From a candidate division Kazan bacterium GW2011_GWA1_50_15 (GTDB lineage: Bacteria; Patescibacteriota; Kazan-3B-28): 64,000 nucleotides of DNA. The notes below the pieces were generated by a model. That model worked only from the letters and a program-made list of their open reading frames with translations. It did no database searches and was not told the origin of the DNA. How positions within the stretch are numbered: position 1 is the stretch's first letter; the number at the start of each line of letters is the position of its first letter. Positions 1,786-21,599 of this stretch are shown one piece after another. The position numbers and the translations under genes are program-made. The stretch is from the NCBI GenBank assembly GCA_001029795.1, contig CP011216.1, positions 6,903 to 70,902 on the forward strand, written 5' to 3'.

Positions 1786-1791
1786 GGTATT

Positions 1792-3654: not shown

Positions 3655-3801
3655 ATTCTTCTCCTTTTGTCCATAGGGGTATATTAAGGGTAAGGATGCC
3701 CGAAAGAGGCCTAAAGTCCAGCTATTTTCAGATTTGGAAAAAGCTTCGCAAAGGGCCATAATGGAGTTAAGGTTAAGGCATATTTTATCTACTCATAGGC
3801 C

Positions 3802-4566
3802 ATGAAGAAGCTCAAATATCCTACAGATTTTCTCAATAAAATAATCTGCGGTGATGCCGTAGAGGTTATGAAACAGATTCCCGATGGATCTGTAGATTTG
3901 ATCGTTACATCGCCGCCTTATAATTTAAAAAATTCAACTGGCAATGGAATGAAAGATGGTCGTGGTGGAAAATGGGCCAACGCTGCTTTGCAGAATGGTT
4001 ACACTCATCACGATGACTGTATGCCCCATGATGAGTATGTGAAGTGGCAAAGGGACTGTCTCGCTCAAATGTTAAGGATAATTCCGGAAGAAGGGGCAAT
4101 TTTTTATAACCATAAATGGAGAGTCCAAGATGGTTTGCTCCAAGACAGACAGGATATTGTTAGTGGTTTTCCGGTCAGGCAAATTATTATTTGGAAACGA
4201 AAGGGTGGGCTGAACTTTAACGCCGGGTATTTCCTACCCACTTACGAAGTAATTTACTTAATAGCCAAGTCTAAGTTTAAGTTAGCTGATAAAGCCAATG
4301 CCCAAGGTGATGTATGGGAATTTACACAAGAAATGGGGAATGACCACCCCGCTGCTTTCCCAGTCACTTTAATTAATCGTATAATTTCATCTACCAATGC
4401 CAAGATGATCCTAGATCCCTTTATGGGATCAGGTACCACGGCAATTTCAGCCATAAATTATAATCGTAATTATATTGGGATAGACCTATCGCCAGAATAC
4501 TGCAAGATGGCAGAGAGAAGGATCGAGCTTCGTAAAAAACAAGTAAAATTATTAATAGAAGTATGA
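3802..4566 (+). CDS. Beta-class amino-DNA methyltransferase (N4-cytosine or N6-adenine); motif IV SPPY precedes motif I DPFMGSGTT
   Basis: DLIVTSPPYNL early and DPFMGSGTTAISA late, the same order as M.PvuII/M.MvaI/M.BcnI-type enzymes. Confidence 0.8.
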   Translation: MKKLKYPTDFLNKIICGDAVEVMKQIPDGSVDLIVTSPPYNLKNSTGNGMKDGRGGKWANAALQNGYTHHDDCMPHDEYVKWQRDCLAQMLRIIPEEGAIFYNHKWRVQDGLLQDRQDIVSGFPVRQIIIWKRKGGLNFNAGYFLPTYEVIYLIAKSKFKLADKANAQGDVWEFTQEMGNDHPAAFPVTLINRIISSTNAKMILDPFMGSGTTAISAINYNRNYIGIDLSPEYCKMAERRIELRKKQVKLLIEV

Positions 4567-5357
4567 AAAAACCGATTATTTACACTAAACCGTTGTTGAT
4601 CAAGAAGCTCAAGGAAATTTCCGAATTGGGCTGGATTCCCAATGCAAGAAAAGGCAACGCTGGCGGGATTGGGAACACCCTGGAGGATTTATTGGGGATA
4701 ACAGAAAATAACTTGCCAATACCTAATGCTGCCGAGTGGGAATTAAAAACCCAACGATTAGGTACTAGCTCGTTGACAACACTGTTTCATACAGAGCCGT
4801 CACCCCGTGCGATTAAATTTGTGCCCCAAATTTTGTTACCCAAGTATGGTTGGGCCCATCAGGAAGCAGGGGAACAATATCCTAAGGGCGAAATGAGTTT
4901 TCGTCAGACCATTCATGGGCAATCGAGAAGTGACAGAGGTTTTAATGTGGTGATAGATCGTGCAGAGAAGAAAGTACTAATCTCATTTGATGCCAAGAGT
5001 GTGGATATACGCCACAAAAGATGGCTAGAGTCAGTTAAAAAGAGGGTAGGGCTTAAAGAGCTCGATCCGCAACCGTATTGGGGATTTGACGATCTTGAGC
5101 ATAAGGCAGGCACGAAATTACTTAATACTTTTTATGTACAAGCAGAGACAAAGATTGAACGCAAAAAAGAATACTATCATTACACAAAAATAATGATGCT
5201 TCAGAAGTTCAGTTTCGAGGGATTTCTCAAAGCGCTTGAAGAGGGGTATATTTTAGTGGATTTTGATGCTAGAACGGGCCACAACCACGGAACAAAGTTT
5301 AGGATGCGCCAAGATGCTTTACCAATGCTGTACGAAAAAGTTACTACTATTTTGTAG
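4563..5357 (+). CDS. Type II restriction endonuclease, MvaI/BcnI-like family (putative)
   Basis: Start overlaps the MTase stop (ATGA). N-terminal region GNTLEDLLGITENN...AEWELKTQRL...LTTLFHTEP parallels the BcnI/MvaI pattern GQILERQFG.QENN...GEFELKG...LTLFHKKP (from memory of BcnI). Confidence 0.55.
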   Translation: MKKPIIYTKPLLIKKLKEISELGWIPNARKGNAGGIGNTLEDLLGITENNLPIPNAAEWELKTQRLGTSSLTTLFHTEPSPRAIKFVPQILLPKYGWAHQEAGEQYPKGEMSFRQTIHGQSRSDRGFNVVIDRAEKKVLISFDAKSVDIRHKRWLESVKKRVGLKELDPQPYWGFDDLEHKAGTKLLNTFYVQAETKIERKKEYYHYTKIMMLQKFSFEGFLKALEEGYILVDFDARTGHNHGTKFRMRQDALPMLYEKVTTIL

Positions 5358-5362
5358 AGGAT

Positions 5363-5956
5363 ATGGCAGTAGATAGCATTGCAGATAAACTGGGCAAATA
5401 TCTTGCGAAGGATATCCCTATCAATAACGAGGCCGAAGTCTTATATTTTTTAATTGAGATCGGAAAAATTCTGGAACGAGATGAGAATATAAAATTTCCA
5501 CTCATAAAATTTTATAGGGATTGGGCTTGTCATCCTCGTAAGGACGGAATGATTCAGGAGATGTTAGATATTGTTCAGAAGATATATCAAGACGCTAAAA
5601 ACCACATGCAATCTCCACATGGATTAGGTAAACCTGTGGCTATACTAGATTTTACAAGTGGCGACCATCTTAAGAAGCAGATGAAGATGTTTTTGGCGGA
5701 ATATGGTTTATCGGACGATAATTTACTGTCCGATAAGAATTGGAAGTGGTTTGCCTCGATGCTATGTAATGTCTTAGCCGAACAGCCTCTATATCCTAAG
5801 TCAGAAGGAGTGGATCATGTTGAGTTTTTGCCAGTTGTTCAGGGTGCAGTTGGAGTAAAAGTGATATTCACTGGTGTTGAGAAAGGATGGGACGATAAGG
5901 ATTATGAGTATTATCAATTTCTGAACTATTTAGGCTCTCTGTCAGATGATTCATAA
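5363..5956 (+). CDS. Hypothetical protein, 197 aa; third gene of the RM operon
   Basis: Starts 6 nt after the REase gene on the same strand. No recognisable motifs. Confidence 0.4.
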   Translation: MAVDSIADKLGKYLAKDIPINNEAEVLYFLIEIGKILERDENIKFPLIKFYRDWACHPRKDGMIQEMLDIVQKIYQDAKNHMQSPHGLGKPVAILDFTSGDHLKKQMKMFLAEYGLSDDNLLSDKNWKWFASMLCNVLAEQPLYPKSEGVDHVEFLPVVQGAVGVKVIFTGVEKGWDDKDYEYYQFLNYLGSLSDDS

Positions 5957-5980
5957 ATGAAACATTTTGTGCCCTGGTTG

Positions 5981-6173
5981 CCACTGTCTCATTTGTCTCA
6001 TTTTCAGGTATGGGGGATAGCGCTTAGTACTGTCGCATTTGTCGCATTTTCTCCTATGGTTCTACAACTGACCGAGCCAGGTTGTCTCATTCCTAAAATC
6101 CCCAGATTATCTCCTTGGGAATCCAATCTGAACCGACCTGTTGAGCCATTTAGGACAGTTAGCTACTTCAGCC
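5981..6173. repeat. Repeat copy 1: degenerate tRNA-Asn 3'-end-like (T-arm/acceptor) segment preceded by tandem ctgtc(t/g)cattt motifs; att-remnant-like
   Basis: Shares ctgtcgcatttgtcgcattttctcctatgg...attatctcct.tgg...ctgaacc.a.ctgttgagcca with copies at 15187-15343 and 17450-17596. The 3' flank taggac.gttag.ta.ttcagc is shared with copy 3. Overlaps the 3' end of the recombinase gene 6107-7606. Confidence 0.6.
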
Positions 6174-7606
6174 AGTAGATTGAAAGGAGAACTAAGCTCG
6201 TAGAGCAGGTTTTTCCCTTGTAATCGGCAGTTCCGAAGTAAAAGACTCAAAAGTTGCCGTTTTTCAGGCACTTCCGAACTTTCAAATATCTCGCAAGCCC
6301 GTTTTGCCAGATTGAATACCATATTTGCCGTTAAATAAAACTCTTCGTCAGCCTGACTGTGGGTATTCATTTCAGCCAATAACTCTGACTGTCTACCTTT
6401 CCACTCTCTCAGCTTTTTGTCGTATTCTTCCTGTGTAATACTACCGTCGAGCTTGTCCACATACATTTTGGATATGCGATTTTCAAGGCGGTCATACTCA
6501 GCCTTAAGGCTATCCATACTATCACGATGGTAGTGAGATTCGCTTTGCCCGATGGCTTTGAGCTCCCTTGTTAGCCCGTCTATGGTGTCTTGGGGCAGTT
6601 GAATGGCTCTCAGGGCATCGTAGACAGGCTTCAAGAGCTCCTTCTCGGGTATCCAAGCCCTTTCGCAGAGCCCCTTATAGTTAGTGCAACTGTAGTAGAT
6701 ATACTTGCCCTTCTTAAGCTCTGGGGTGATTAAACATCCGCACTTGTCGCATCTTATGAGACCTCTAAAGATAAAGGGTTTAGCTTTGGATTTAAATGAC
6801 TTCTTGTTGTAGCCCGCCATTATGGTTTGGCACTTATCAAATAGCCACTTGGGAATCAGTGGCTCGTATTTGTGAGGATATTCCTTACCCTTAACGACCA
6901 TAACTCCGTGGTAAAAGGGATTTTTCAGATTCTTATGAACAAGACTGTTAGGGATTTGTTTCCCGTTTCTGGTCATCAACCCCGTCTTGTCTAACTCTTG
7001 TTTAATAGTTTTGACTGAATGCTGACCTGTCGCATAAAGCTCAAACATTCTTCTTATTGAATGGGCTCTTTCTGGGTCTGGGATGATTGTCTTTTTACCA
7101 TCAGGCAGGTCTTGGTTGATGTAGCCGATTGGAGCCATCCCTGCCCACTCCCTATTTAATATTTTTTGACTAAGGCTACGCTTCACATTGTCGCTTAGTT
7201 GCAAAACATAGCTTCGGGCAAACATTACTCCCATATCCCAACGAAGCAGGTCGGAGCTATTAGATTGGTCGTTGAGTATCAGGTTCTCTCGGATAAAGTG
7301 GATTTCTAATCTGCCATTCTTGCGGAACTCGTCCAATGTAACTGATTCCTTAAAACTGCGCTGTAGGCGGTCTATGGTTTCTACTACTAAAGTTACGGGT
7401 TCCTTGGAGGTGCTAATCTCGTTAATAACTAACTCAAACTTTTTGCGTTGGTCTTTAGTGGAAGACTCGTCAAATTGATATTCGCTCTGGACATCTAAAT
7501 TTCTGTCTTGGCACCATTGTCTTGAGCGGGCAAGTTGGGCGGGGATAGACTGTCCGTCCTGTATTTGTTCTTCTGTTGAAACTCGGGCTAAGATGACGGC
7601 TTTCAT
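6107..7606 (-). CDS. Large serine recombinase (second copy, distinct sequence)
   Basis: MKAVILARVSTEEQ...SIPAQ N-terminal resolvase motif, recombinase domain and Cys-rich zinc ribbon CDKCGC...YYSCTNY. Confidence 0.8.
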   Translation of the reverse strand: MKAVILARVSTEEQIQDGQSIPAQLARSRQWCQDRNLDVQSEYQFDESSTKDQRKKFELVINEISTSKEPVTLVVETIDRLQRSFKESVTLDEFRKNGRLEIHFIRENLILNDQSNSSDLLRWDMGVMFARSYVLQLSDNVKRSLSQKILNREWAGMAPIGYINQDLPDGKKTIIPDPERAHSIRRMFELYATGQHSVKTIKQELDKTGLMTRNGKQIPNSLVHKNLKNPFYHGVMVVKGKEYPHKYEPLIPKWLFDKCQTIMAGYNKKSFKSKAKPFIFRGLIRCDKCGCLITPELKKGKYIYYSCTNYKGLCERAWIPEKELLKPVYDALRAIQLPQDTIDGLTRELKAIGQSESHYHRDSMDSLKAEYDRLENRISKMYVDKLDGSITQEEYDKKLREWKGRQSELLAEMNTHSQADEEFYLTANMVFNLAKRACEIFESSEVPEKRQLLSLLLRNCRLQGKNLLYELSSPFNLLAEVANCPKWLNRSVQIGFPRR

Positions 7607-10600
7607 AGATTATTTTCTTTTGCAATTTGTAGGTATAAGCGGTTGACCTCTTTGTCCACATCACGCATTTTAGAATCATTCTTATAGCCAAGATGAGCTT
7701 CCTTCGATAGGTTAACAAGTGCTTTGTGCGCACTATTGTTAGGGTCATACTTGGGGATATATACAGGGGGTCGAATCTTAAAGGTCCGACTGTCTGAGGA
7801 TAATAACACAAATTTTTGTGTGATAGGGGCATTTAGGATGGCACAAATGAAGTGGGCTTCGTCGATTGTGATAAAGCCTCCCTTGGCATCTTCGCAGATA
7901 GATACGGCGTGGTTCTGAAAGAGCGGATGTCTTACCCCGCCCCATTCAGTATCCACGTCGGACACGACCACAGCCTGCCATTTTGTGTTGTCTCGAAAAC
8001 AGACATAATTTCTTGCAAAGCTATAAGCCCCCACCCTTGCTAAGGCGTAAAACTCCTGCTCTTTTTTGCCAATAATCTTTGCATTGTATTCTGTTTGATT
8101 CTCAAACATCTTTTTGTAGTTTACGAAATAGGTGGCGAGTAAGGGACTTTTTTCTTTTAATATTTTGAGATTCAAAGGGACACGAGTGCTAACCTCCTTA
8201 TCGTATGGAAATGGAACAACATAATTGTCGTCTGTGTTGAGATGATATCTTTCAATATCGACACCCTTGATTAGGGGGTGTAGATATTCTTTCTCTACTA
8301 AAATAGTTTGCTGACCTATCTTATACTTTGACTTTTGATTTTGATAATTGTTAAGATATACCTTCCCAGTTAGGGCTTTTATCTCTAAATCGGCTTTGAA
8401 CAGAAGGAGCTCCTGTGGATAGAATTCGATGCCCTCTCTACCTAAATAATAAGAGCTACCCGAGATTGAATTGAAATCTTGTATGTCAGATTTATTATTA
8501 GCATAAGTAAAAGCCGTGTTTTCATCATTGCACTGACCAAGATACCCCTCTTTTTTAATAAAGAATTCTTTTACATTCTCAAACTTAGAGTAATGATTGA
8601 TTTCCTCAATCGGCTTTTTAGTGTTTTTCTTGTAAATCTCTAAGTTAATGCCTTTCTTGTAGTCAGTTTTGTTGCTTGATATAAAGTAGGTTAAAAACTT
8701 ATGCTGGACAGGTTTGAAAGGATGACCCGCTCCTGTCCAATCAACAATTTTTTGGAAGTAAAATCTTGTGCCATCTGAAATATAAAAATTCCTAAAACCC
8801 TCATAAGTCTGTTGGAATAGGAGATTCTGTGGCATCAGGAAAGAAAGCACCCCGTCTTTTTTTAGCCAGTTATCAACAGCGACATTCGCAATAAGAGCAC
8901 AGATATTGAGATTAATACCCCCAGTAATACCATCGCCTGAGAATAGGTGTCTTTCGATGCAGAGAGATTTCACCCTTTCTCGATAACCCTCAGGTAGGCT
9001 TTTCCAGTCAATCCAGGGCGGATTGCCGACTATCAGGTCAAATTTGCCGAGATTGGCAGTGGTAAGAAAATTCGTAACAATACGAGCCCAGATACCATTC
9101 CACTCGTTTTTCTCGAGTTCAACGAATCTGCTGGACAAGTCCTGGATATTTGAAATTATATCGTTGTTAATGTCTGCCTTGTTTACTAAAGCAACTATCT
9201 TATTAAAAACCGCCTTTTCATCTAATGCTTTGATATCTTGTTCGATTGCAGTCATTGTCCTTGAAAATAGACCAGAATCAGCCACTGCACTTTTGGGTAA
9301 GGTAACGTCGAGGTATCCTTTAAGGGTTTTGATTTTGTAGTTTAAGCAATCAACACCTGAGACCTTGGTTTCTTCTGGAACATATGAAGAATCGCCCAGG
9401 TAAACTGGGATTTCTATGTCTCCATCGTCAGTAATCAAATGAGCGATATTGATAAAGTAGTTTATTCTACAAGTCAGCACTGCTAACGGGTTCAGGTCAA
9501 TTGCCTTAACACGATTCAATATGCTCTTTAAGCGATTCTCTTTGCTGTTATCAGATGCTTCTTCGTTGATAATTTTCTCAATCAGAACAGTTATAAATGT
9601 TCCAGACCCAGCACAAGGGTCTAATCCTCTCCAATTTGGCTTATTATCCAACATTTCGATTGTCTCTGTAACAAGGTGGTCGGCAAGCCAAGCTGGTGTA
9701 TAGAATTCACCTAAGCTATGCCTAACTTTTAATGGGATTATTTGCTCGTATAGTTCTTTAAATAAATCTTGAGCACGGGTCTCTTCCTGAGATAAAATCT
9801 TGTCTTCATATTTTGTAAGAGTATGAAAGGTTTCCTTAACTATTTCATAAATGTCGTCGCTCCATTGACCAGGTGATGCATACCAAGAGAAAAAGTCTCC
9901 CTCAAGGAGATTAGTGATACCCAGAGACCTAAAGACAGCTCCATCTTCAAGTGCCTCCATTTGCTTCTGAATGACGGAACTGTTGCTGACAGCCAGCTCG
10001 TTGAATTGGATGATATTTTTCTTGAACTTAATTTTACTTGTAACCTTATAGGCAATTATTTTGATAATTATTGCATAAGCCGTTTGTAGAGAATATAGGG
10101 CTAAATATTCCTCTGCATTGGTTTTGATTTTGATACCCAAACTCCTCCCCAGTGCATGTCTTCTTTCTTCAATAGCCAATTGTTTAGACTTGTCGTTATG
10201 TGCAAGTCTAAACAATTCTCGCCACTCTTCAAAGAGCATCAGAGTTTTGCCAGTAGCTTTATTGTTAAGGGTGTCAAAAAGAATTTTTGCCAACCTTTTT
10301 GATAGAGAGCAATCAAGAGGTTCACAAAAATCTTTGACAAGGTTTTTTGAGTTAAGGGCTACTAAGTCAAGGATTAGTATCGACCTAATTATTCTGTCCA
10401 AATATCTATCCGAGATATCTCCCCAAGCTTCCTCATAAATTTTACCGTGTTCACATCTTATAAACTTTAAAATAATCCCGTCTGTAACAAGACCAAGATA
10501 GTCGTTCTGATTTTTTGCATATAAACCAGAAAGATAGTCAGTTAATTGTTGGTCCGCACTATCCTTATGTGCTTTTGTTTTTAGTTTACTCGGGTGCTTG

Positions 10601-10863
10601 AATTCAATAATGAATCCACCATACTTGCTGTCTATCCTTCCTTTGGTTATGTGCCGTTCAGTATTGACCAACTTTTCCTTCTGGGGATAGTATTTAATTC
10701 CTAAGTGGTCAGACAAAAAGGCAAATAAGTTGATTTCAAAAACACTTACAACAGTAGCTTCATTTTCTGCCGTCTCTGAGCCTCGGCGTATAGACAAAGC
10801 CAAGTCGACAAGCTTTTCTCTGTATTCAGTAGTGTCTAAAAAACTAAGGTTTTTGCTTTCCAT
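7603..10863 (-). CDS. Type IIG/IIL-like fused restriction-modification enzyme (N-terminal PD-(D/E)xK nuclease + gamma-class N6-adenine MTase + C-terminal target-recognition region), 1086 aa
   Basis: IDSKYGGFIIEFK (D...ExK) near the N-terminus. MTase motif I LDPCAGSGTF and motif IV IVGNPPWIDW. Size and layout resemble MmeI/BpuSI-type enzymes. Start overlaps the recombinase stop (ATGA). Confidence 0.6.
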   Translation of the reverse strand: MESKNLSFLDTTEYREKLVDLALSIRRGSETAENEATVVSVFEINLFAFLSDHLGIKYYPQKEKLVNTERHITKGRIDSKYGGFIIEFKHPSKLKTKAHKDSADQQLTDYLSGLYAKNQNDYLGLVTDGIILKFIRCEHGKIYEEAWGDISDRYLDRIIRSILILDLVALNSKNLVKDFCEPLDCSLSKRLAKILFDTLNNKATGKTLMLFEEWRELFRLAHNDKSKQLAIEERRHALGRSLGIKIKTNAEEYLALYSLQTAYAIIIKIIAYKVTSKIKFKKNIIQFNELAVSNSSVIQKQMEALEDGAVFRSLGITNLLEGDFFSWYASPGQWSDDIYEIVKETFHTLTKYEDKILSQEETRAQDLFKELYEQIIPLKVRHSLGEFYTPAWLADHLVTETIEMLDNKPNWRGLDPCAGSGTFITVLIEKIINEEASDNSKENRLKSILNRVKAIDLNPLAVLTCRINYFINIAHLITDDGDIEIPVYLGDSSYVPEETKVSGVDCLNYKIKTLKGYLDVTLPKSAVADSGLFSRTMTAIEQDIKALDEKAVFNKIVALVNKADINNDIISNIQDLSSRFVELEKNEWNGIWARIVTNFLTTANLGKFDLIVGNPPWIDWKSLPEGYRERVKSLCIERHLFSGDGITGGINLNICALIANVAVDNWLKKDGVLSFLMPQNLLFQQTYEGFRNFYISDGTRFYFQKIVDWTGAGHPFKPVQHKFLTYFISSNKTDYKKGINLEIYKKNTKKPIEEINHYSKFENVKEFFIKKEGYLGQCNDENTAFTYANNKSDIQDFNSISGSSYYLGREGIEFYPQELLLFKADLEIKALTGKVYLNNYQNQKSKYKIGQQTILVEKEYLHPLIKGVDIERYHLNTDDNYVVPFPYDKEVSTRVPLNLKILKEKSPLLATYFVNYKKMFENQTEYNAKIIGKKEQEFYALARVGAYSFARNYVCFRDNTKWQAVVVSDVDTEWGGVRHPLFQNHAVSICEDAKGGFITIDEAHFICAILNAPITQKFVLLSSDSRTFKIRPPVYIPKYDPNNSAHKALVNLSKEAHLGYKNDSKMRDVDKEVNRLYLQIAKENNL

Positions 10864-11041
10864 AAGTGTTCTGATGCAAGAATTGGCTAAAAGTTTTTTT
10901 GTCGATTCTATATTCTTTGCCGAATTTATAGACCTTTAACTTGCCAGCTTTTATATAGCGGTAAATCGTCATTATGTTGACCTGCAGTTTCTCGGCTAAC
11001 TCCTGGGCTGTATAGAAATCTTTTTCCATAGTAATCCTCAT
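10844..11041 (-). CDS. Excisionase-family helix-turn-helix DNA-binding protein (AlpA/Xis-like)
   Basis: YTAQELAEKLQVNIMTIYRYIKAGKLKVYKFGKEYRI matches the excisionase-family HTH pattern. 3' end overlaps the start of the Type IIG gene. Confidence 0.6.
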   Translation of the reverse strand: MRITMEKDFYTAQELAEKLQVNIMTIYRYIKAGKLKVYKFGKEYRIDKKTFSQFLHQNTYGKQKP

Positions 11042-11068
11042 TACGTTAGTATTATACTTTACAATGCT

Positions 11069-12190
11069 TTACATCTCAAATCTGGGTTTGTAAGGTTGAA
11101 ATTCATCAATCTGAGCAATGACTTGCTTAACCCAGCCGTCATATTGGGCGGGGGATTTGTTGAGGTTTTTTAGCTCTTTTACGATTCGAGTCCAAGTGCG
11201 AGGGTTGGCTCTGTTGTTTAGCATTTGTCGTAATTCTCTTATGCCTGTTGCGTCTTTAGCCAAGAGATATAAGCCCGTAAGAAAGATGGCTTGTTTGTGT
11301 TTGATTTTAGGGTGGTTAATCAGGATGGTATTAAGAATTTGCTTGGGCTTAATGTCGCTGGTAAAGATAAATAAGTTGTGGTTGGCTATGAGCTCTTGCC
11401 AGTAGTAGCTCACTACCTTTTGCGAGGTGCCGCTACAGAAAACATCTTTAAATGTGGGATTCTTGGGGTATCCGAGTTTCTGGAGTAAAGAATTGAGTTT
11501 ACGCCTGTCAGCAATGCGTATTTCCACTCTAAGAATTTCAAGTTTTTGTTCTTGGGCTTGTTCAAATAAAGAGCGTTGAATATAGTTTTGGTCTTTGTCT
11601 ATGGAACGGTTTTTGGTCTTCTGGATGTCTTGGATTTTGTCATAAAAGACAAGGGAATTCGAGGTGGCATAGTATTGCAGGGATTGCCCATCGTTCTGAA
11701 ACCCGTGCCGTGTAATATCCAGTTTTTTAGATATGTTTACCTTCATTAGCTCTTTGATTACGAAGCTTGGGGTGTAGCCATCCTCAAGTTCAATATTTTT
11801 GGAGTAGTGGACTGCGGATACCTGTGCAGTGGCTAACAGGGGTTTTAGTATGTTAACCCCAATATCCCTAAGACTGTTGGTTAGTCTTTCAAGCACGGCA
11901 TCAAAGTCGCTATCGGTCAGTTCTTCCAGATTGTTGCCGTATAGCAGTTTAGGGGCTGAAAACTGGATAGTTAGCTCCTGTGCTATCTGACCATCTTTTG
12001 TCCATCTTTTCGTAAGGGTTAGGCAGGGTCTGTAGTGATGCAACCGTCTTTCTTCGGCAGTCGGGTTGTTTGTGATTTTGCTTATGGGTTTTTCATACTT
12101 AGTGAAATCATCAGCATTTTTGCTGAATTTATCGGGTTTTGAGATGTAATATTGCCCCTTAGGAATTTTTAGGACGATTGTGTCTATCAT
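11069..12190 (-). CDS. Hypothetical protein, 373 aa; possibly a replication/mobilisation initiator of the integrated element
   Basis: No firm motif. Position within a recombinase-bearing element and basic/Tyr-containing segments suggest a Rep-like role; this is an unverified guess. Confidence 0.3.
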   Translation of the reverse strand: MIDTIVLKIPKGQYYISKPDKFSKNADDFTKYEKPISKITNNPTAEERRLHHYRPCLTLTKRWTKDGQIAQELTIQFSAPKLLYGNNLEELTDSDFDAVLERLTNSLRDIGVNILKPLLATAQVSAVHYSKNIELEDGYTPSFVIKELMKVNISKKLDITRHGFQNDGQSLQYYATSNSLVFYDKIQDIQKTKNRSIDKDQNYIQRSLFEQAQEQKLEILRVEIRIADRRKLNSLLQKLGYPKNPTFKDVFCSGTSQKVVSYYWQELIANHNLFIFTSDIKPKQILNTILINHPKIKHKQAIFLTGLYLLAKDATGIRELRQMLNNRANPRTWTRIVKELKNLNKSPAQYDGWVKQVIAQIDEFQPYKPRFEM

Positions 12191-12399
12191 TGCGTTTATA
12201 TTTTTGGGGATTATTACGCTGGTCTACTTTAAAGAGAATTGCCATAAATTGGACGAGTTTACCCCAGTCCTCTTGAGAGAGATTTTTCAGGGTCGGATTA
12301 CCGAGGCTGGATTGTTGGTTGTTTGCAGACATAAAAATAACCTCTGTTTTGAGGTTACAAAATGCTGTGTTTGCAGAACTCTGCGAGGTAGTCTGCAGA

Positions 12400-13551
12400 C
12401 TATTCGAGGTATTTTTTGTTGAGCTGGAGCGTAGTTTTTTTCATAATTACAAAATCCCTAATCCTGGTTTGCTTGGCTATCTCCTCGTTGAGGTCATAGG
12501 TGGCATTGTAGAGCTTCTTCCAATGCTTGCGAGGGTTATACTCAATGCTCTTGCCAAAGAGTTTTTCCCAAAGTTCATCGACATCCCAGACTTTTGTGGG
12601 GGCTTTGAATACTGCTTTGAGTAGATAGTGGGGGTTGCTGTCGAGAGTTTTAGAGATGATAGCTCTGTGAACCTGAAATACCAACTCGCTTGTTTTGGGG
12701 TTGAAGGCGGTTGGGCATTTTGTCAGCACTTTGGTTGGCTGGTTTTCTTCTTGGAGAGTTTTGTTTTTTAGCGTAACCCTGACCTTATAAGTCATTGTTT
12801 CCTTCTCGGGAGGGACATCCCAGTCCGTTACCCAGATTGCATTAACATCAAAATATCCCTGCTTTTCCAAGGCAATCAGGGTATGTATGAACAGACCCTG
12901 TCTCTCTGCCAAGATATAACTTGGGAATGGATTGGGGGTATTTTGACCAGGGTTTTGCACCACAAAGGTGTTGCCAAGGTCTCTGCTCTCCATTTTGAGC
13001 TCCCGTAACATCCGCTCCTTTTGTCTATCGAATTTGTAGTAATTATCTTTTTCTACAGCCAGGTTATCAGATATAAATGCTTCAATGTAAGATGTCAGAA
13101 AACTATCCAGCCTATCCTGGGTTTTCTTGCTGAGTATAGTTGGGAACTCAAACCACTCTGCCAACTTGTATTTTTCGGATATCATTCCTATCGCTATAAA
13201 GTCTTGATAGGTAAACTCATTTTTCTTCAGGGCTTCTATCGAGTTTGCTATTCCTTCGCTAACACCATCTTCAATGTGCTGGCTCCACTCATCATCATTG
13301 GTGTAGGTGTAATATCCTTTAGAGTTGAAAGAGAGACCATCTATCTCGATACCCATATTTTTCATATGGAGGCTTAGTAATGCCAAGCACACGCCCAAGG
13401 TCGAGAAGTCGGGAGCAGCGAGGTCTTCAAATCCTATGGGGTTTTTGGTGGTCAACCTGTGCGCATTAGCATACTTCCAGAGTCCATATAGGATTTTCTC
13501 TGGCAGATAGGGGCACTGCTTCAATTTTTGGGGGTTGGACGCTTGCTTCAT
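12400..13551 (-). CDS. Hypothetical protein, 383 aa
   Basis: Long ORF in the AT-rich island with no recognisable domain. Confidence 0.35.
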   Translation of the reverse strand: MKQASNPQKLKQCPYLPEKILYGLWKYANAHRLTTKNPIGFEDLAAPDFSTLGVCLALLSLHMKNMGIEIDGLSFNSKGYYTYTNDDEWSQHIEDGVSEGIANSIEALKKNEFTYQDFIAIGMISEKYKLAEWFEFPTILSKKTQDRLDSFLTSYIEAFISDNLAVEKDNYYKFDRQKERMLRELKMESRDLGNTFVVQNPGQNTPNPFPSYILAERQGLFIHTLIALEKQGYFDVNAIWVTDWDVPPEKETMTYKVRVTLKNKTLQEENQPTKVLTKCPTAFNPKTSELVFQVHRAIISKTLDSNPHYLLKAVFKAPTKVWDVDELWEKLFGKSIEYNPRKHWKKLYNATYDLNEEIAKQTRIRDFVIMKKTTLQLNKKYLE

Positions 13552-13652
13552 ACTCTCTTTACTTTAGTTTACAACAGTATGATAGTCGACCTATGATGTA
13601 GGGGATGTATAAGCGAAGAAGACAGCCAGCACTAAAACTGAGGCAATCACTT

Positions 13653-13728
13653 GCCTCTGTAGCTCAATGGACAGAGCAACTGTCTTCTGAACAGTAGGTT
13701 GAGGGTTCAAATCCCTCCAGAGACACCA
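13653..13728 (+). tRNA. tRNA-Arg (anticodon TCT), embedded at the right end of the island
   Basis: D-arm gctc/gagc, anticodon stem actgt/acagt with loop ctTCTga, T-arm gagggttcaaatccctc, CCA encoded. One C-A mismatch at acceptor pair 2:71. Confidence 0.6.
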
Positions 13729-13787
13729 AGGGCAATGACGGCACTTTCTGATTGTGCTTTTTCTGCTTGTCCTGCTACGATGTAGGC

Positions 13788-14294
13788 ATGACGATGAAGA
13801 CTACCAAGCTACCCCCGAAGGCACTCAAAGCAGTTGATGTGGGGCGGTATTTTATACATCTCTCCAATGAGGCAGGGAAGCCAATAACCAACAAAAAGCT
13901 ACAAAAGCTGGTCTATTACTCTCAGGCTTGGTCATTGGTGCTTAACGATAAAAAGCTCTTTGGTGAGCCTATTGAAGCGTGGGTTCACGGACCTGCTGTG
14001 CGAAGCCTGTATGTTCAATACAAGCCATTTGGCTTTGGTCCAATACGGGAAACGATAAGCGTTCAGGATGTCAAAAAAATATCTGGCAAGGTCAAGAAAC
14101 TCCTTGATGACATCTGGCAGGTTTATGGCAAGTTAGATGCCAGTTATCTTGAAATGCTGACCCATTCTGAACAGCCTTGGCTGACTGCTCGGGATGGACT
14201 ACAGGGGCACGAGAACTCTGAGAAGGAAATATCTTTAGACAGTATGAAGAGCTTCTATACCGACAAGCTCCAAAAGTCTAAAGGTAGAAAATGA
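13788..14294 (+). CDS. Panacea-domain (DUF4065, SocA-like) antitoxin-type protein
   Basis: KLQKLVYYSQAWSLVLNDKKLFGEPIEAWVHGPAVRSLY matches the DUF4065/Panacea core. The ORF is listed from 13752; internal Met preferred. Confidence 0.55.
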   Translation: MTMKTTKLPPKALKAVDVGRYFIHLSNEAGKPITNKKLQKLVYYSQAWSLVLNDKKLFGEPIEAWVHGPAVRSLYVQYKPFGFGPIRETISVQDVKKISGKVKKLLDDIWQVYGKLDASYLEMLTHSEQPWLTARDGLQGHENSEKEISLDSMKSFYTDKLQKSKGRK

Positions 14295-14737
14295 CAGATA
14301 TTCCCAAAGGTGTAGTTCAGCCCTCTGAAGAGGGGGGTATAGAGATAACCCAATCGGTTGCTGAACTGCCCGAGGAAAGCGAAGCTCCAGAGGCGAGCCC
14401 TTATTTGATTTCTTTTGCGAAGTATAACGAGAGAGAGTGCCAGATTGCTGATTTGCAGGGGAATATGGGTAAAAAGGCGTTGTTAATACTAAAGGCAATA
14501 GGCACTAAGATAAAGTGCATTGCAGACTTTGCTACTCATAATGTTGAAAGGCGTCCCATAAGGCGGGAGGGGGACTATTTGAAACTGTATAGGGGTCTCA
14601 GTGATGATATTGACCTTCACGAAGCCAACCTACAAAGCACGGGTAGGATTTTCTATTTTGATGTGGAGCCAGACAGGTTGCTCTATGTGGTCGCAATTAC
14701 CAATCGCCATTTTGAGACGGGCAAGGTTAGGCGGTAG
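14291..14737 (+). CDS. Putative RelE/ParE-fold toxin partner, 148 aa
   Basis: 4-nt overlap with the upstream Panacea gene. C-terminal RIFYFDVEPDRLLYVVAITNRHFE resembles the RelE/ParE C-terminal motif (R.YY....L.v..I.H). Confidence 0.4.
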   Translation: MTDIPKGVVQPSEEGGIEITQSVAELPEESEAPEASPYLISFAKYNERECQIADLQGNMGKKALLILKAIGTKIKCIADFATHNVERRPIRREGDYLKLYRGLSDDIDLHEANLQSTGRIFYFDVEPDRLLYVVAITNRHFETGKVRR

Positions 14738-14857
14738 CCAGCCCCCGTTCCAATAACGGCAGGATGCCCGAATACCCCAATTCCTGTTTGATAACCTTCC
14801 AGTCAACTGTTCTAAACTTGTCCAATAGGGGGAGCCAACCAGTGCGCGAGCAAAGCG

Positions 14858-14890
14858 ACCCAGATGCGTTAAATCAGTCCAGTAGCCCAA
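14858..14890. repeat. Partial copy of the tRNA-3'-end-like repeat (gacccagatgcgtt ... cagtagccc)
   Basis: Matches the central block of copies 2 and 3 and the leader of copy 2. Confidence 0.4.
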
Positions 14891-14992
14891 AACCCCTTCC
14901 CGGAGGGCTGTTTTGTGCTACTATCTAAGTGTTCACCCACAACTTAAAAATCCGAAGGATTTCTCTATTTTGGAAGAGATTCGTCATGGGTA

Positions 14993-15190
14993 AAGGCGGG
15001 CAGATGCTCGAATAACTGACAAAGAAATAGCTAAGTTCCAGCAGATTTACGAGAAGGAGTTTGGAGTCAAAATCAGCAAGAAGGACGCCCTGGAACAGGG
15101 CACTAAGCTGTTGGTTTTAATGAAAGCCATTTGCCAGCCCATTCCATCACGAGGCCACGAAGATAGTCCAAAGTCCAGCCCAAGACAGTA
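14993..15190 (+). pseudogene. Gene remnant without start codon (…KEIAKFQQIYEKEFGVKISKKDALEQGTKLLVLMKAI…) in a degenerate, ORF-poor zone
   Basis: Open frame with no ATG. Lies in 14740-15190, which carries repeat fragments. Confidence 0.25.
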
Positions 15191-15343
15191 GCCCTTGCCA
15201 CTGTCTCATTTGTCTCATTTCCTCCTAAGGTTCTATAACTGACCCAGATGCGTTCGGGCCCATCCAAAACCTCCGAATTATCTCCTTTGGTGGGGGTTCT
15301 GAACCCAGCTGTTGAGCCAAACAAAAACGAGTCAAATGACCGA
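15187..15343. repeat. Repeat copy 2: tRNA-Asn 3'-end-like segment followed by a 21-nt flank identical to the flank of the intact tRNA-Asn
   Basis: ggttctgaacccagctgttgagcca mimics ctggttcgaatccagccgcgggagcca. aaaaacgagtcaaatgaccga (15323-15343) is identical to 669-689 immediately 3' of tRNA-Asn. Confidence 0.65.
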
Positions 15344-15392
15344 CCCCCTAAGGGACGGGCATTTGGCGGTTCTCAGAAAAAGTCGCTTCCAG

Positions 15393-15421
15393 TTGACTTA
15401 AGAGGTAATTTATGATATAAT
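15393..15421 (+). promoter_or_regulatory. Consensus sigma70-type promoter (TTGACT - 17 nt - TATAAT)
   Basis: ttgact at 15393-15398 and tataat at 15416-15421 with 17-nt spacer, 28 nt upstream of the 15449 ORF. Confidence 0.55.
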
Positions 15422-15448
15422 AAACAAGCTTTTAAAAACCAAAATAAA

Positions 15449-15778
15449 ATGGCCGAGAAATCACTTGAGTCCCCTCTGGAAGAAGAAGTCATCAAACGCT
15501 TCAAGCTGTTTAGGGATTTGCGTGATAATGAGGAAGACGAGAGAATATTGAATCTGGTGGAAGAGGGGTTGCGGGAAGAGGCATTGCGAGCTGTCGCGGA
15601 GATGATACCCGCGGGCCAGGCTGAGTCAGTCAAAAAGAAACTAGCTCAGGCAACTACAGCGGATGAAGCCATGGGAGTACTGGCTAGTTTTGCGCAGGAC
15701 GATTTGACTCGTTGGCAATTGAGAAATCGACTGATGGCTTATCTGGACAACCTATTAGTGAAAAGTAAAGCAATGTAA
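15449..15778 (+). CDS. Small acidic hypothetical protein, 109 aa
   Basis: ORF preceded by the consensus promoter. Stop overlaps the start of the next gene (TAATG). Confidence 0.45.
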   Translation: MAEKSLESPLEEEVIKRFKLFRDLRDNEEDERILNLVEEGLREEALRAVAEMIPAGQAESVKKKLAQATTADEAMGVLASFAQDDLTRWQLRNRLMAYLDNLLVKSKAM

Positions 15779-17391
15779 TGGTAGAACGATTCGGGGGATA
15801 TACTCAGGAGCCTATGCCCGACGATGAACAGTCCGGGCTTGGGCACGAACACGGGAAAAGTTTCCTCCTGGATACACTTGCCGAAGAGCAGGTGGAGAGT
15901 CTTCTCGCGGATAAGCACTTGTCGAAAGAGGGCAAAGAGTTTGCCCGAGATTTTTGTGCCAAGGTAATGGAGCAAGTGCCCGAAGAGGCAAGCTTGTCTG
16001 AGATTAGAGAAATTTTCGCGCAAGTTACAGACACCTTTCCGCAAGAAGGGCGAGAGGGCAAGCTCTACAATCTGCTAGAAAAGTCGATCGAATTTCGTTT
16101 GCGCAATCTCGAGGAGGCTAAGGATGTGGCAGGGCTGCAATCATTGAACTCGCCACTGCTAGCAATGGTGGGCGAAATCAAGGAGCGCTATGCCAGTCTT
16201 CCGGATCAACCTGCAAACAACTCCATTATTACATCGGTGGTGAGCGCTAAGCGATTTCTATCGAGGATGGCGGAGGAGGTGCCGGAGCGCAACCTGTCTT
16301 TTCCCGATCCGACAGTGTCGGGAATATTCAAGGCCTTTCTTGAGGAGAAGTTTTCGATTCGGTTGCGGGAAGAATTGGCAACTAATCCTGAAGCAAGCCT
16401 AAAAAAACTAATGCAGTCGGTCGAGGCACGCATGAATCCGGAAGCGCTGACAGGCGAGTTTGCCGACTTTCTTAAGCAGGTGCCTTCAGTGAGGGCGGTA
16501 GAGCAAGCAGTACAAGATATAGTGACGGAACAGTCTCCTGCCGAGCGGTCGACCGAACGCAGGAGGAGAGGATGGCTCGGCGATGCGGTGAAAAAGTTGA
16601 GGTTAGGCGTAACTAAGACGGCTGTATTAGGTACTTTGCTCATAGGGATGGCCGCAGGTAGTCCGGGGGTTGAGCCGCAGGGACGCATGGTTGGGGACCA
16701 GGACGTAGCAAAAATTACTTTTACCCTGCCGGAGTGGACATCAACAGTAGAGTCAGCTCCAATTTACGAAGCTGGGGTAGTAAAAAATGAAAAAGATTTA
16801 GCGGTCGAAGTCGACCGCAGAGTCAATGAGGCTGCTGAGTTACTAGGTGAACCTTACGCCAGCCATATAAAGCAGTTTCTGGAAGACTCTAAGTGTTCTG
16901 TGGAGATTCTCCCAGAGGGCGATGCTTGGGGGGATCTTATTACACCCGATGATCCCGAGATTGAACTGCCCGATGGACACTTCATTATGCGTGTTAACGC
17001 TCAAGCTTTCAGCTCTCCAGAACGACTCGCGTCAGTGGTATTGCATGAAACGACTCACTGGCGTAATCATGAAGTTTTCGACCAAATGCTTCATAGTGAC
17101 GACTCTCAGATGAGCCTCTCAGAAAATTGGGAGCACTCGGTTTTAGTACATACTGCTGATGAAATGGCATCGTATGCGACTCAAATCCGGTGGTCGGATG
17201 AGCATCCGGAATTCGCTATCGGAATTGATGATTTACCTCAAAGTATCGTCGATGGTTACCGAGAATCGGACGAAGCCTTTGCCAGAGCAATTATGCTCAG
17301 CTATGGATTTTCCAGTAGATGCGTCATTAGCCATGAAAAAGCTCCGGAGAAAGTCGTACCTATTTATAGGTCCCTTGCTACAATTCGATAA
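15778..17391 (+). CDS. Hypothetical membrane-anchored protein with HExxH zinc-metallopeptidase-like motif (LHETTHW), 537 aa
   Basis: Acidic N-terminal half, one TM segment (TAVLGTLLIGMAAG), C-terminal domain with HETTH. Translationally coupled to the upstream ORF. Confidence 0.45.
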   Translation: MVERFGGYTQEPMPDDEQSGLGHEHGKSFLLDTLAEEQVESLLADKHLSKEGKEFARDFCAKVMEQVPEEASLSEIREIFAQVTDTFPQEGREGKLYNLLEKSIEFRLRNLEEAKDVAGLQSLNSPLLAMVGEIKERYASLPDQPANNSIITSVVSAKRFLSRMAEEVPERNLSFPDPTVSGIFKAFLEEKFSIRLREELATNPEASLKKLMQSVEARMNPEALTGEFADFLKQVPSVRAVEQAVQDIVTEQSPAERSTERRRRGWLGDAVKKLRLGVTKTAVLGTLLIGMAAGSPGVEPQGRMVGDQDVAKITFTLPEWTSTVESAPIYEAGVVKNEKDLAVEVDRRVNEAAELLGEPYASHIKQFLEDSKCSVEILPEGDAWGDLITPDDPEIELPDGHFIMRVNAQAFSSPERLASVVLHETTHWRNHEVFDQMLHSDDSQMSLSENWEHSVLVHTADEMASYATQIRWSDEHPEFAIGIDDLPQSIVDGYRESDEAFARAIMLSYGFSSRCVISHEKAPEKVVPIYRSLATIR

Positions 17392-17449
17392 TCGATCCCG
17401 ACCAGTCATACAATTGCGAGCTACAGCTAGCCTAAATCCCTAGCCTCTG

Positions 17450-17596
17450 CCACTGTCGCATTTGTCGCATTTTCTCCTATGGGTTCTTCAACTGACCCAG
17501 ATGCGTTCGGGCCCATCCAAAACCTCCGAATTATCTCCTTTGGAGTGGGTACTGAACCGAGCTGTTGAGCCAACTAGGACGATTAGTTATTTCAGC
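17450..17596. repeat. Repeat copy 3: tRNA-Asn 3'-end-like att-remnant repeat
   Basis: About 90% identical to copy 2 over the central 110 nt. 3' flank matches that of copy 1. Confidence 0.65.
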
Positions 17597-17843
17597 GGTG
17601 GGTGCAGCCGGCCCAACAGCAGGGGCGGCGCATACCGGATTTAAGCTTCGACAGCGTTTTTTCGATTCTGATGCCTCTGGTCTCAGATTTTTTGCCCGAG
17701 GTCACCCAACAGATCCATTCGTTGCGAGCCAACGGGGTAATGTCCTCCCAGGCGGCTAACGCCGCCGGGGCAGAGATGAGGGCTTGGCGTAAATCGGGCG
17801 GCAGCTTGTGAACTACGCCATCGGCAACTTCCGGTTTGGTCAT
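17592..17843 (-). CDS. YdeI/OmpD-associated (OmdA) family small protein
   Basis: ITPLARNEWICWVTSGKK.ETR..RI and the C-terminal RRPCCWAGCTH fit the YdeI/OmdA family pattern. Confidence 0.5.
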   Translation of the reverse strand: MTKPEVADGVVHKLPPDLRQALISAPAALAAWEDITPLARNEWICWVTSGKKSETRGIRIEKTLSKLKSGMRRPCCWAGCTHR

Positions 17844-17919: not shown

Positions 17920-18894
17920 ATGCCACAAGGATTTTGGGGAAAATTGAAGCGGCCGATTTTGGCGCTAGCGCCGATGGCGGATGTGACTGACGCGGCTTCT
18001 CGGCGGATTATTGCCAAATACGGCAAGCCGGATGTGATGTGGACCGAGTTTGTTTCGTGTGACGGATTGTGTTCGGCGAAGGGGCGGAAGGCGTTGTTGG
18101 TGGACCTAAAATATAGCGAGGCCGAGCGGCCGATAGTGGCGCAGATTTTTGGGAGTACTCCAGCGCATTTTTATGAATGTGCTAGATTACTGAAAAAACT
18201 AAAGTTTGATGGGATTGATATCAATATGGGCTGTCCTGACCGCAAGGTAGAAAAACAAGGCGGTGGGGCCAAGTTGATGTTAAATCCCCAGTTAGCCCAA
18301 GAAATTATCCGCGAGACCAAGCGCGGGGCCGGGGGTCTGCCGGTGTCGGTCAAAACCCGCATCGGCTATAACCAGCGCGATGTTGCCAAATGGATAGGGA
18401 CGTTGATCGAGGCCGAGCCGGCGGCGATCACTATTCACGCTCGGACGCGTAAGGAAATGTCGAAAGTGCCGGCGGACTGGCAGGCGATCGCCGAAGTGGT
18501 GAGGTTGGTGCGGGCGTCGGGCAAAGACATTCTGGTCATCGGTAATGGGGATGTGAAGAATTTGGCTGACGCCAAGCGGAGGGCGAAGGAATCCGGGGCT
18601 GACGGGGTGATGATCGGTCGGGGGATATTCGGCAACCCCTGGTTGTTTAGTCGATCAAAAAAACGGATAACACTGGCAGATAAACTAGCCGTGCTGGCAG
18701 AACACGCCAGATTATTTGAGCGGCTGACGCCCAAAAAGAACTTTTCCGTTATGAAAAAACACTTCAAGGCCTATGTATCCGGTTTTGAGGGTGCAGCCGA
18801 GTTAAGAGCCCGATTGATGGCGGCGAATAGTGCCGTGGAGGTGGCCAAATTGGTACGAAGTGTCGGCCCGGCCCGCCGACATGGAGGACTTTAG
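17920..18894 (+). CDS. tRNA-dihydrouridine synthase
   Basis: LAPMADVTDAASRRI N-terminus and the TIM-barrel FMN-binding pattern of Dus proteins. Confidence 0.8.
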   Translation: MPQGFWGKLKRPILALAPMADVTDAASRRIIAKYGKPDVMWTEFVSCDGLCSAKGRKALLVDLKYSEAERPIVAQIFGSTPAHFYECARLLKKLKFDGIDINMGCPDRKVEKQGGGAKLMLNPQLAQEIIRETKRGAGGLPVSVKTRIGYNQRDVAKWIGTLIEAEPAAITIHARTRKEMSKVPADWQAIAEVVRLVRASGKDILVIGNGDVKNLADAKRRAKESGADGVMIGRGIFGNPWLFSRSKKRITLADKLAVLAEHARLFERLTPKKNFSVMKKHFKAYVSGFEGAAELRARLMAANSAVEVAKLVRSVGPARRHGGL

Positions 18895-20115: not shown

Positions 20116-20190
20116 GGGTCCGTAGCTCAGTGGTAGAGCAGTCCCCTCATAAGGGATGGGTCGTAGGTTCGATCCCTACCGGACCCACCA
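20116..20190 (+). tRNA. tRNA-Met, elongator (anticodon CAT)
   Basis: Acceptor gggtccg/cggaccc fully paired (G1-C72), anticodon loop ctCATaa, T-arm gtaggttcgatccctac, CCA encoded. Confidence 0.75.
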
Positions 20191-20200
20191 ACAGATCAGA

Positions 20201-20932: not shown

Positions 20933-21021
20933 AATAGGACGCCAACGCACGAACCCATGCTGCGCAGGGTTCTCGTCCATACCCCCAAAATTAAAATAGC
21001 CCCTAGGGGGCGATTTTAATT

Positions 21022-21096: not shown

Positions 21097-21127
21097 GGTA
21101 GATATTAGCAGGTGATAGGTGATTTGT

Positions 21128-21541: not shown

Positions 21542-21599
21542 AGCAACATAAGTGTAACAAAAAGATACATCCTATCTGGTCTTGAGCTACAATTAGAAT

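Follow-up and report, generated by a model that had tools for sequence, protein, structure and literature searches.

Bacteria of the Candidate Phyla Radiation (CPR), or Patescibacteria, have tiny genomes, and their mobile DNA has apparently been little described. The known serine integrases mostly use protein-coding or intergenic targets, and sites of 40-50 bp suffice for them without accessory sequences. Secondary attB use has reportedly been seen with SGI1, an example of secondary or pseudo attachment sites. The res sites of the Tn3 and gamma-delta small serine resolvases are made up of multiple subsites, extend over ~120-190 bp and carry repeated short boxes beside the recombinase gene. The stacking of islands at a tRNA gene, with partial-tRNA-like repeats between them, is likewise already known behaviour. 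Among the tycheposons of Prochlorococcus, 910 of 937 elements carry tyrosine recombinases and a minority carry large serine recombinases (Hackl et al., bioRxiv 10.1101/2020.12.28.424599). Here we describe a module, named R, that recurs in the 17 kb between the genes for tRNA-Asn and Dus in a window of 64,000 nt (64 kb) from the candidate division Kazan bacterium GW2011_GWA1_50_15 (contig CP011216.1, positions 6,903 to 70,902; all window coordinates below count from its first base). M denotes the tandem repeat of R, box 1 its internal GACC box and tail its last 25 nt. The 17 kb consist of accessory genes, among them two large serine recombinases, LSR1 and LSR2. We put at roughly 60% the probability that R is the DNA-level distal (right) end module of CPR integrative islands that enter tRNA 3' ends via an LSR1-type recombinase. 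An earlier reading of the sequence, referred to below as the original prediction, had described three tRNA-Asn 3'-end-like copies and explained them either as att remnants, left by repeated integration and rearrangement, or as a tRNA-end-mimicking mobile repeat.

The locus shares several traits with tycheposons and classical tRNA-linked islands. These are the apparent insertion at a tRNA 3' end with newcomers stacked beside older elements, the partial-tRNA-like repeats, degenerate elements and recombinase-less remnants between islands, and a defence-rich cargo of restriction-modification and toxin-antitoxin-like genes. It differs in its recombinase class, here large serine recombinases, and in its CPR hosts, in the imitation rather than duplication of the tRNA end, in the reuse of that end by a second recombinase family, and in the conserved M: the mimic in R is brought by the element, its core is specific to the family, and a tandem repeat of conserved 9-bp units stands in front of it. 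As in the phage-type large serine integrases (phiC31, Bxb1, TP901-1, A118), the recombinases combine Resolvase, Recombinase and zinc-ribbon domains, their genes lie at the element end, the partner sites have few identical bases (here the GAGCCA of tRNA-Asn and R) and insertion is precise. Unlike those integrases, their targets here are tRNA 3' ends or mimics of them, and the putative crossover has a conserved motif 0-146 bp away. As with secondary attachment sites, a lookalike of the primary target takes further integration and tandem arrays result, but here the element systematically provides the surrogate through its own end module, and recombinases of a different family use it. To res-type sites there is a resemblance only, as the recombinases here are large and the box spacing varies between 0 and 146 nt.

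The R module and its tRNA-like tail

A full R comprises 130-170 nt and consists of M (the 9-bp repeat TGTC[T/G]CATT, twice in tandem), a poorly conserved middle and the 25-nt tail. In the window, the 19-nt tandem motif TGTCKCATTTGTCKCATTT was found four times (5985, 6031, 15202 and 17454), always on the + strand, with 0.02 occurrences expected by chance, and the 3' segment CTGAACCNAGCTGTTGAGCCA was found three times with 0.01 expected. The three ~150-nt copies of the original prediction are present to within a few bases, each with the tandem motif. By local alignment, their identity is 93% over 92 nt for copies 2 and 3 and 67% for copies 1 and 2. Copy 1 (R1; 5976-6148, + strand) holds two M modules 46 nt apart, of which that at 5983-6003 is T-type and that at 6029-6049 is G-type after their variable base; its box 1 lies at 6070-6083, and its tRNA-end mimic (6124-6148) ends in GAGCCA. 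Copy 2 (R2; 15177-15319, + strand) has a T-type M at 15200-15220, box 1 at 15241-15254 and the tRNA-end mimic at 15295-15319. The corresponding features of copy 3 (R3; 17429-17572, + strand) are a G-type M at 17452-17472, box 1 at 17494-17507 and the mimic at 17548-17572. A predicted further fragment at 14858-14890 is real and includes GACCCAGATGCGTT, identical to box 1 of copies 2 and 3.

In the R tail, GGTTC-A--CC is followed by 14 nt leading to GAGCCA, which reproduces exactly the geometry of tRNA positions 52-76. The predicted mimicry of the T-arm and acceptor end of tRNA-Asn is thus exact in its layout, but the identity is modest: the tail of copy 2 matches tRNA-Asn at 15 of 25 positions, and the exact common stretch is GAGCCA (6 nt). 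No exact direct repeat of the tRNA 3' end was found at the distal boundary, so the tail is a mimic and not a duplicate. R contains no 5' partner strand for either the T stem or the acceptor stem.

The R family was collected with a scan for an exact 21-mer in one genome per species; the further R loci (given as L numbers) and their counts come from the matches listed. Eighteen R loci include a tRNA gene, and in 16 of them it lies upstream of R on the same strand, 0.5-5 kb away. The last 8 nt of the tails gave 76 matches to their own upstream tRNA, compared to 55.0 +/- 4.7 in shuffled pairings (p = 5e-5, permutation), and the 14-nt tail gave p = 1e-4 in the same kind of comparison (permutation). 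The common end of tail and tRNA is GAGCCA at tRNA-Asn (window, L023, L111), CAGCCA at tRNA-Gln (L005, L064, L069), CTACCA (L063) or GGGTCAC (L028) at tRNA-Glu, and CAACA at tRNA-Met (L062, L088). The T-loop-like core of the tail is GGTTCTAGACC, and not the host GGTTCGAATCC, whatever the target tRNA; only the last 6-8 nt track the target. Because the core is constant across targets, the R tail appears to be an element-borne imitation tuned at its end rather than a displaced piece of host tRNA, and the description as a tRNA-end-mimicking mobile repeat was close to the truth. Terminator-like hairpins were found after R in 16 of 79 loci compared to 3 of 79 control windows, an excess that is expected if R abuts the former downstream flank of the tRNA.

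The 21-mer is present in contigs of at least 117 species, nearly all of them Patescibacteria, and its carriers include Peregrinibacteria/Peribacteria, Saccharibacteria, WWE3, Gracilibacteria, Levyibacteriota, Paceibacterota and others. About 100 of these contigs have the same layout of M, a variable middle of 0-146 nt (median 62) and a GGTTCTAGACC-like core plus 14 nt, usually ending in (G)CCA. The label of att remnants was therefore correct in relating the copies to attachment sites, but "remnants" understates a family of this extent. The expected relation of further copies to recombinases was also seen, with R at island ends behind tRNAs and LSR1 or LSR2 present in several loci. The exact 21-mer had no match in 2.9 million viral contigs (IMG/VR), no DNA similar to R was found in plasmid and phage collections, and the tandem motif had no match in ~1 Mb of related loci. 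Literature searches yielded nothing specific on the R motif or on CPR serine-recombinase tRNA islands. In L007 and L097, the 21-mer is followed by the conserved end of an RHS-repeat toxin core (…YDEENALQYYGARYMDNE…) with no R body; M may thus also sit at junctions of toxin-tip cassettes.

The variable base of M is the same in both 9-bp units, with 102 TT pairs, 19 GG pairs and no mixed pair. In addition, L104 has a CC pair, and in L051 the unit is present four times. An inverted GAGACA lies no more than 45 nt upstream of T-type M in 52 of 100 loci and of G-type M in 0 of 17, and a second M, of the T-type, often lies ahead of a G-type M (R1 is an example). Since the 9-bp pair is matched and often accompanied by an inverted third copy, M is most likely a protein-binding site, for which it is at present a candidate. 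At the R loci examined, no conserved neighbouring gene beyond the two recombinase families was found as a candidate M binder. The matched variants could arise from repeat slippage. In L063 (820-870), the end of R is closely followed by a perfect terminator-like hairpin built from GAGACA/TGTCTC units. This hairpin and the four units of L051 suggest that the 9-bp unit expands by slippage and can enter hairpins.

Two families of large serine recombinase at R

Both recombinases have Resolvase, Recombinase and zinc-ribbon domains (Pfam), and LSR1 (2371-3759, - strand; Pfam) also matched the PHROG integrase family phrog_95. In the window, the 21 nt aaaaacgagtcaaatgaccga directly follow both tRNA-Asn (670-690) and copy 2 (15323-15343), within a 30-nt block of 93% identity. 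The original prediction had correctly reported this identity, but at 669-689. We refer to this flank as a (aaaaacgAGTCAAATGACCga at 670-690, + strand) and propose that it is the P' arm of island A, the first island after tRNA-Asn, and the left-end site of LSR1-type elements. LSR1 homologues with 50-64% identity are located upstream of R, on the opposite strand, in at least nine loci (L074, L109, L111, L115, L054, L062, L019, L108 and L077). Judged by placement and orientation relative to a tRNA and/or R, the homologues of the first seven of these loci and of L206 correspond to LSR1, at 48-66% identity. They lie 177-242 nt from M in L074 and L109, and a 66%-identical LSR1 lies ~2 kb from tRNA-Gln in a viral-catalogue contig, L206. 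Three of these loci (L111, L115 and L054) have the tRNA-Asn end with 28 nt of flank, LSR1 and R in common at ~80% nucleotide identity. The cargo between LSR1 and R differs among them, and the homology ends at the last base of R. As the three loci share flank, LSR1 and R around differing cargo, the mobile unit appears to run from a through LSR1 and the cargo to R. Similarly, the junctions of tRNA-Met with a and of R agree between L062 and L088, whereas the cargo differs and the recombinase has been lost from L088. The flank-a motif AGTCAAATGACC recurs 11 nt after tRNA-Met in both loci, which carry the same island type.

LSR2 (6107-7606, - strand; Pfam Resolvase, Recombinase and Zn_ribbon_recom) has a reading frame that spans the junction between R1 and its 3' flank, b1. 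LSR2 homologues are convergent to R and abut its tail in L004, L014, L016 and L017, and a GGAAC/GGAC motif is found 3-8 nt after CCA in L016, L017 and the window. The contigs L017 and L044 are 99.9% identical over 3226 nt and split right after ...GCTCAGCCA, where LSR2 is located in L017; the breakpoint falls directly after CAGCCA. L016 and L079 are 88.8% identical over 3473 nt and diverge at the same point after the CCA of R, with LSR2 in L016. These occupied and empty pairs demonstrate that the insertion point of LSR2-type elements is the position directly following the CCA of an R already in place. A genuine tRNA-Asn is abutted in the same manner by an LSR2 homologue of 51% identity in L160. 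The suggested action of serine recombinases on these sites has comparative support, as LSR1, R and the tRNA flank form a conserved unit and LSR2 is present or absent at the CCA of R.

Two further observations concern these junctions. L044 has a second pseudo-tRNA end, ggtctgcagaccctcctccccagcca, ~40 nt past the end of R, and its last 15 nt are those of the real tRNA-Gln acceptor end of L005; stacked pseudo-ends are therefore also found in other genomes. In the window, the LSR2 frame crosses the island junction (6107-6175) in such a way that its last ~14-22 codons come from flank b1 and the R1 tail, and excision would therefore alter the LSR2 C-terminus.

The island stack between tRNA-Asn and Dus

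The gene order at the locus is DnaG, RpoD, (SLT, GIY-YIG), tRNA-Asn, islands and Dus. In the closest relative found, L126 (Dus 77% identical), RpoD, tRNA-Asn and a terminator are present, the tRNA-to-Dus distance is ~2.3 kb with unrelated genes, and R is not present at this syntenic locus. By this comparison, the 17 kb between tRNA-Asn and Dus in the window are DNA inserted at a tRNA-linked hot spot. No strain without some of the islands was found, as every contig with an identical Dus or LSR1 has the same stack (no within-species polymorphism). The relatives of the window genome derive from groundwater metagenomes, a habitat that, like the long 16S rRNA gene described below, fits a CPR organism, as these bacteria are known for 16S insertions.

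In the mechanism that we propose, the last 25 nt of R, with the GGTTCTAGACC core and the target-tuned end, would form the left half of attP in the free element, and the short a site (AGTCAAATGACC...) would form the right half. The predicted circle junction joins the R1 tail TGTTGAGCCA to a CATAAAAACGAG, and the predicted empty-site junction joins tRNA-Asn GCGGGAGCCA to b1 TTTAGGACAG. Crossover at or beside the CCA of the tRNA would leave a next to the tRNA and R next to the host flank, with the island between them. Since the end of R is a usable pseudo-tRNA end, each island would offer a new docking site at its distal boundary, and LSR2-type elements do insert there and at genuine tRNA-Asn. 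Repeated insertion at the tRNA and at R ends would then produce the series tRNA-Asn, a, island A with LSR1, R1, b1, island B with LSR2, R0, a', mini-island D, R2, a, island C, R3 and b3, followed by an OmdA-like gene and Dus.

Four or five stacked islands thus make up the 17 kb between tRNA-Asn and Dus. Copies 1 and 3 have a common 3' flank that differs from a, as had been predicted: 3 nt after CCA they continue with aggacagttagctacttcagcc (b1; 6152-6173, + strand) and aggacgattagttatttcagcg (b3; 17576-17597, + strand), which are identical at 17 of 22 positions as counted by eye and have the common pattern aggacNNttagNtaNttcagc. Judged from these junctions, a is most likely the left end of LSR1-type elements and b that of LSR2-type elements, the latter because b1 lies inside the LSR2 reading frame. 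Each R would then be followed by the left end of the next element, either a or b, and the interleaved pairs need no rearrangement. Of the scenario of repeated integration followed by rearrangement, the repeated integration at tRNA-Asn is retained, and the order is given by head-to-tail stacking. New elements may have entered next to the tRNA, so that older islands moved outward, or they may have used R tails, as LSR2 does. The flank b3 may be host flank or the relic left end of a lost LSR2-type element.

The intact tRNA-Asn(GTT) gene (592-666, + strand; ARAGORN, Rfam tRNA 70.9 bits) would be the primary integration target and the left half of attB, now the left part of attL. Island A (691-5975) encodes an SDH-type protease (757-1785), orf195, LSR1, an MvaI/BcnI restriction-modification pair (3802-5357) and orf197 (Pfam), and its right end is R1, the putative docking site for island B. 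The proposed left end of island B, an LSR2-type island, is b1, within the 3' end of the LSR2 reading frame. The remainder of island B (7603-14769) encodes an Eco57I-like type IIG enzyme, orf383, a SocA/Panacea protein and orf148 (Pfam), a small HTH_17 protein of 61 amino acids (aa; about 10844-11029, - strand; precomputed Pfam), a Phage_CRI-like Rep (11069-12190; Pfam) and a tRNA-Arg(TCT) (13653-13728; ARAGORN). The 383-aa open reading frame (ORF) at 12400-13551 beside this tRNA-Arg had no Pfam or PHROG match, and the pair resembles a further integration-type module. The right end of island B is proposed to be R0 (14770-14837, + strand), read from the sequence as a degenerate R 3' half (gttctaaac...gggggagcca) without M. 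Its degenerate tRNA-end mimic ...gttctaaacttgtccaatagggggagcca (14809-14837) lies just upstream of the 14858-14890 fragment. This assignment is tentative because the likeness to the R middle and tail is weak. The fragment itself belongs to an a-like junction, gcaaagcGACCCAGATGCGTT (14850-14870, + strand), whose 14-nt box is identical to box 1 of R2 and R3 and which is proposed as the left end of a decayed mini-island D of ~300 nt (14871-15176). R2 and the a flank after it (15323-15343, + strand), the proposed left end of island C, precede island C itself (15344-17428), which has no recombinase. Its two genes, orf109 (15449-15778, 109 aa) and orf537 (15778-17391, 537 aa), overlap, had no Pfam or PHROG match and are both kept in all strains seen. 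After R3, b3 overlaps the stop codon of the short OmdA-like gene (17592-17843, - strand) that lies upstream of Dus (17920-18894).

Other parts of the window also have unusual features. Positions 293-345 are a partial duplicate of the tRNA-Asn 5' half with a 16-nt insert in the D-loop region; a small GIY-YIG ORF comes directly after it and extends into the intact tRNA-Asn (293-601). This region resembles an insertion of the homing-endonuclease type at the anticodon loop, by which tRNA-Asn was rebuilt, and the tRNA-Asn of L115 appears similarly split by ~500 nt. The 16S rRNA gene in 40792-44319 spans 1633 nt compared to the 1533 positions of the Rfam model, suggesting an insertion, and the tRNA-Ala (-) and tRNA-Ile (+) genes after it diverge, an unusual layout for an rRNA operon spacer. 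Three tRNA-Met(CAT) genes in mixed orientation lie within less than 2 kb (20116-22035), a cluster that is kept downstream of Dus and RluB in L126.

Alternative readings and implications

Several results weigh against R as the distal end module of LSR1-type islands. Most R copies have no recombinase within the available 5-8 kb, so many may be orphaned or serve another purpose. No excised circle or attP junction was found, none of the small R-bearing contigs is circular, and one pattern search of metagenomes for an empty junction of tRNA-Asn with b had no match. No clear dyad symmetry was seen around the proposed crossover, at the junction of the R tail with a, where a crude script run with no control gave best scores of 10-11 of 25, which we take to be near chance level. 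In L117 and L092, the interval from tRNA to R holds housekeeping-like genes and the R tails mismatch the tRNA. The flanks b1 and b3 are alike, yet at the LSR2 insertions of L017/L044 and L016/L079 the element-side and host-side flanks bear no relation to each other. Part of the invariance of M is built in, as the family was found with an exact 21-mer. Real constraint is indicated only by the secondary M copies, which were not selected by the pattern and are nevertheless near-perfect. To our knowledge, large serine recombinases do not need sequences 60-150 bp from the crossover, and the conservation of M is therefore not accounted for by the model.

R could instead be a resident CPR small RNA gene with a tRNA-like 3' end that acts as an integration hot spot, the window copies being replacements carried by elements. 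Consistent with this, the "empty" genomes L044 and L079 already contain R, it has a CCA end often followed by a terminator-like hairpin, most loci have a single copy, and the 21-mer is invariant across many CPR phyla and absent from the 2.9 million viral contigs. However, the evidence is against R being a structured RNA. Rfam gave nothing relevant for R at gathering and E-value thresholds, RNAalifold on 31 diverse R copies gave 0 consensus pairs, and the single-sequence folding energies are ordinary (z -2.1 to +2.4, centred on the shuffled mean); a structured RNA of any kind was rejected on these grounds. Partner strands for the T stem and acceptor stem are lacking and no promoter was predicted at the window copies. 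The length of the middle varies between 0 and 146 nt, the 3' end differs according to the upstream tRNA, and R is not in the syntenic locus of the closest relative and moves with LSR1 between unrelated flanks. We judge an RNA gene unlikely. The copies could also be classical att remnants, that is, native tRNA-Asn 3' ends that were displaced and duplicated by integration of the tyrosine-integrase type and have since decayed. They are direct repeats in tRNA orientation, and tandem arrays of partial tRNAs are the textbook result of repeated tRNA integration, as in tycheposons (bioRxiv 10.1101/2020.12.28.424599). This origin is very doubtful, as no tyrosine recombinase was found among the island ORFs tested (Pfam, PHROGs) and the tail has only its 15 of 25 matches to tRNA-Asn. 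In addition, R copies downstream of Gln, Glu, Met and Ser tRNAs in other phyla have the same non-tRNA core GGTTCTAGACC, the tail is preceded by over 100 nt of conserved sequence, M included, that does not derive from a tRNA, and copies 2 and 3, at 93% mutual identity, are equally distant from the tRNA.

A different crossover point is conceivable, in the GACC-N6-GGTC-like box of a and box 1, with M as an element arm and the R middle and tail as host DNA. The boxes that flank an island are near-identical in L088 (15 of 16) and mini-island D (14 of 14), and several loci (L034, L087) have an imperfectly palindromic box. Yet the box matches numbered 11 compared to 9.0 when boxes were swapped between loci, the LSR2 breakpoints are at CCA, and related elements in different hosts are homologous through the entire R to its last base. 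Crossover in the box also cannot yield the arrangement that is usually seen, with M first and box 1, middle, tail and terminator after it, and we regard it as very unlikely. Even less probable, in our view, is that R is a miniature non-autonomous repeat, similar to miniature inverted-repeat transposable elements or repetitive extragenic palindromes, that spreads by itself and lies near recombinases by chance. Its size of 130-190 nt, the several copies in one region and the many copies without a nearby recombinase would fit such a repeat, but it has no terminal inverted repeats and no target duplications, and all copies in a locus are on one strand. The copies are found at island boundaries with tails that track the tRNA, and the only four motif matches in 64 kb are all in the island stack, with none in the ~1 Mb of related loci.

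Other candidate roles were tried and rejected. A tmRNA or two-piece tmRNA (transfer-messenger RNA), prompted by the CCA end, the single-copy look and the terminators, was ruled out: ARAGORN found no tmRNA in the window or in 110 loci, Rfam was negative, acceptor and T stems are lacking, and conservation begins only ~25 nt upstream of M. Pairing of M with rRNA or tRNA gave duplex energies to the window 16S rRNA and tRNAs that were no better than those of shuffles. A reverse-strand mini-ORF (MRQMRQ...) across M, read by eye, has lengths and stops that are inconsistent between loci. M or the "cccTTATAAT" middle as a promoter was not upheld either, as a perfect TTGACA-17-TATAAT is found only in L062 and L088 and none was predicted in the window copies. 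In L088 (3766-3797), and also in L062, this promoter-like sequence lies inside R and is aimed at the downstream tRNA-Met. By its sequence, R appears to supply or overlap the host tRNA-Met promoter in these two loci.

A bolder extension, which we hold to be rather unlikely, is that R is a portable "docking cassette" with two functions, a tunable pseudo-tRNA end for the chaining of islands and an M that is read by a conserved factor. In its first part, serine-recombinase islands would re-create an attachment site at their own far end, onto which unrelated elements would chain, and R would thereby serve throughout the CPR as a device dedicated to the building of islands. In its second, a host protein or a small DNA-binding protein encoded by the island would recognise M (TGTC[T/G/C]CATT, twice) and time the use of the junction. 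In a radical version, the tail may be transcribed as a short unstructured tRNA-3'-half-like RNA with a cellular role.

For R as the distal end module of LSR1-type islands, the consequences are as follows. In annotation, R copies should not be labelled tRNA pseudogenes or RNA genes. M, whose identity across more than 100 species follows from the way the search was built and which has no literature or Rfam record, is open to a binding study. Recombinases with short, definable and apparently re-tunable target tails may serve genome engineering. For the biology of these bacteria, the locus points to two families of serine recombinase that naturally target tRNA 3' ends or mimics of these, and M together with a pseudo-tRNA end provides a recognisable signature for island boundaries and insertion hot spots in CPR genomes.

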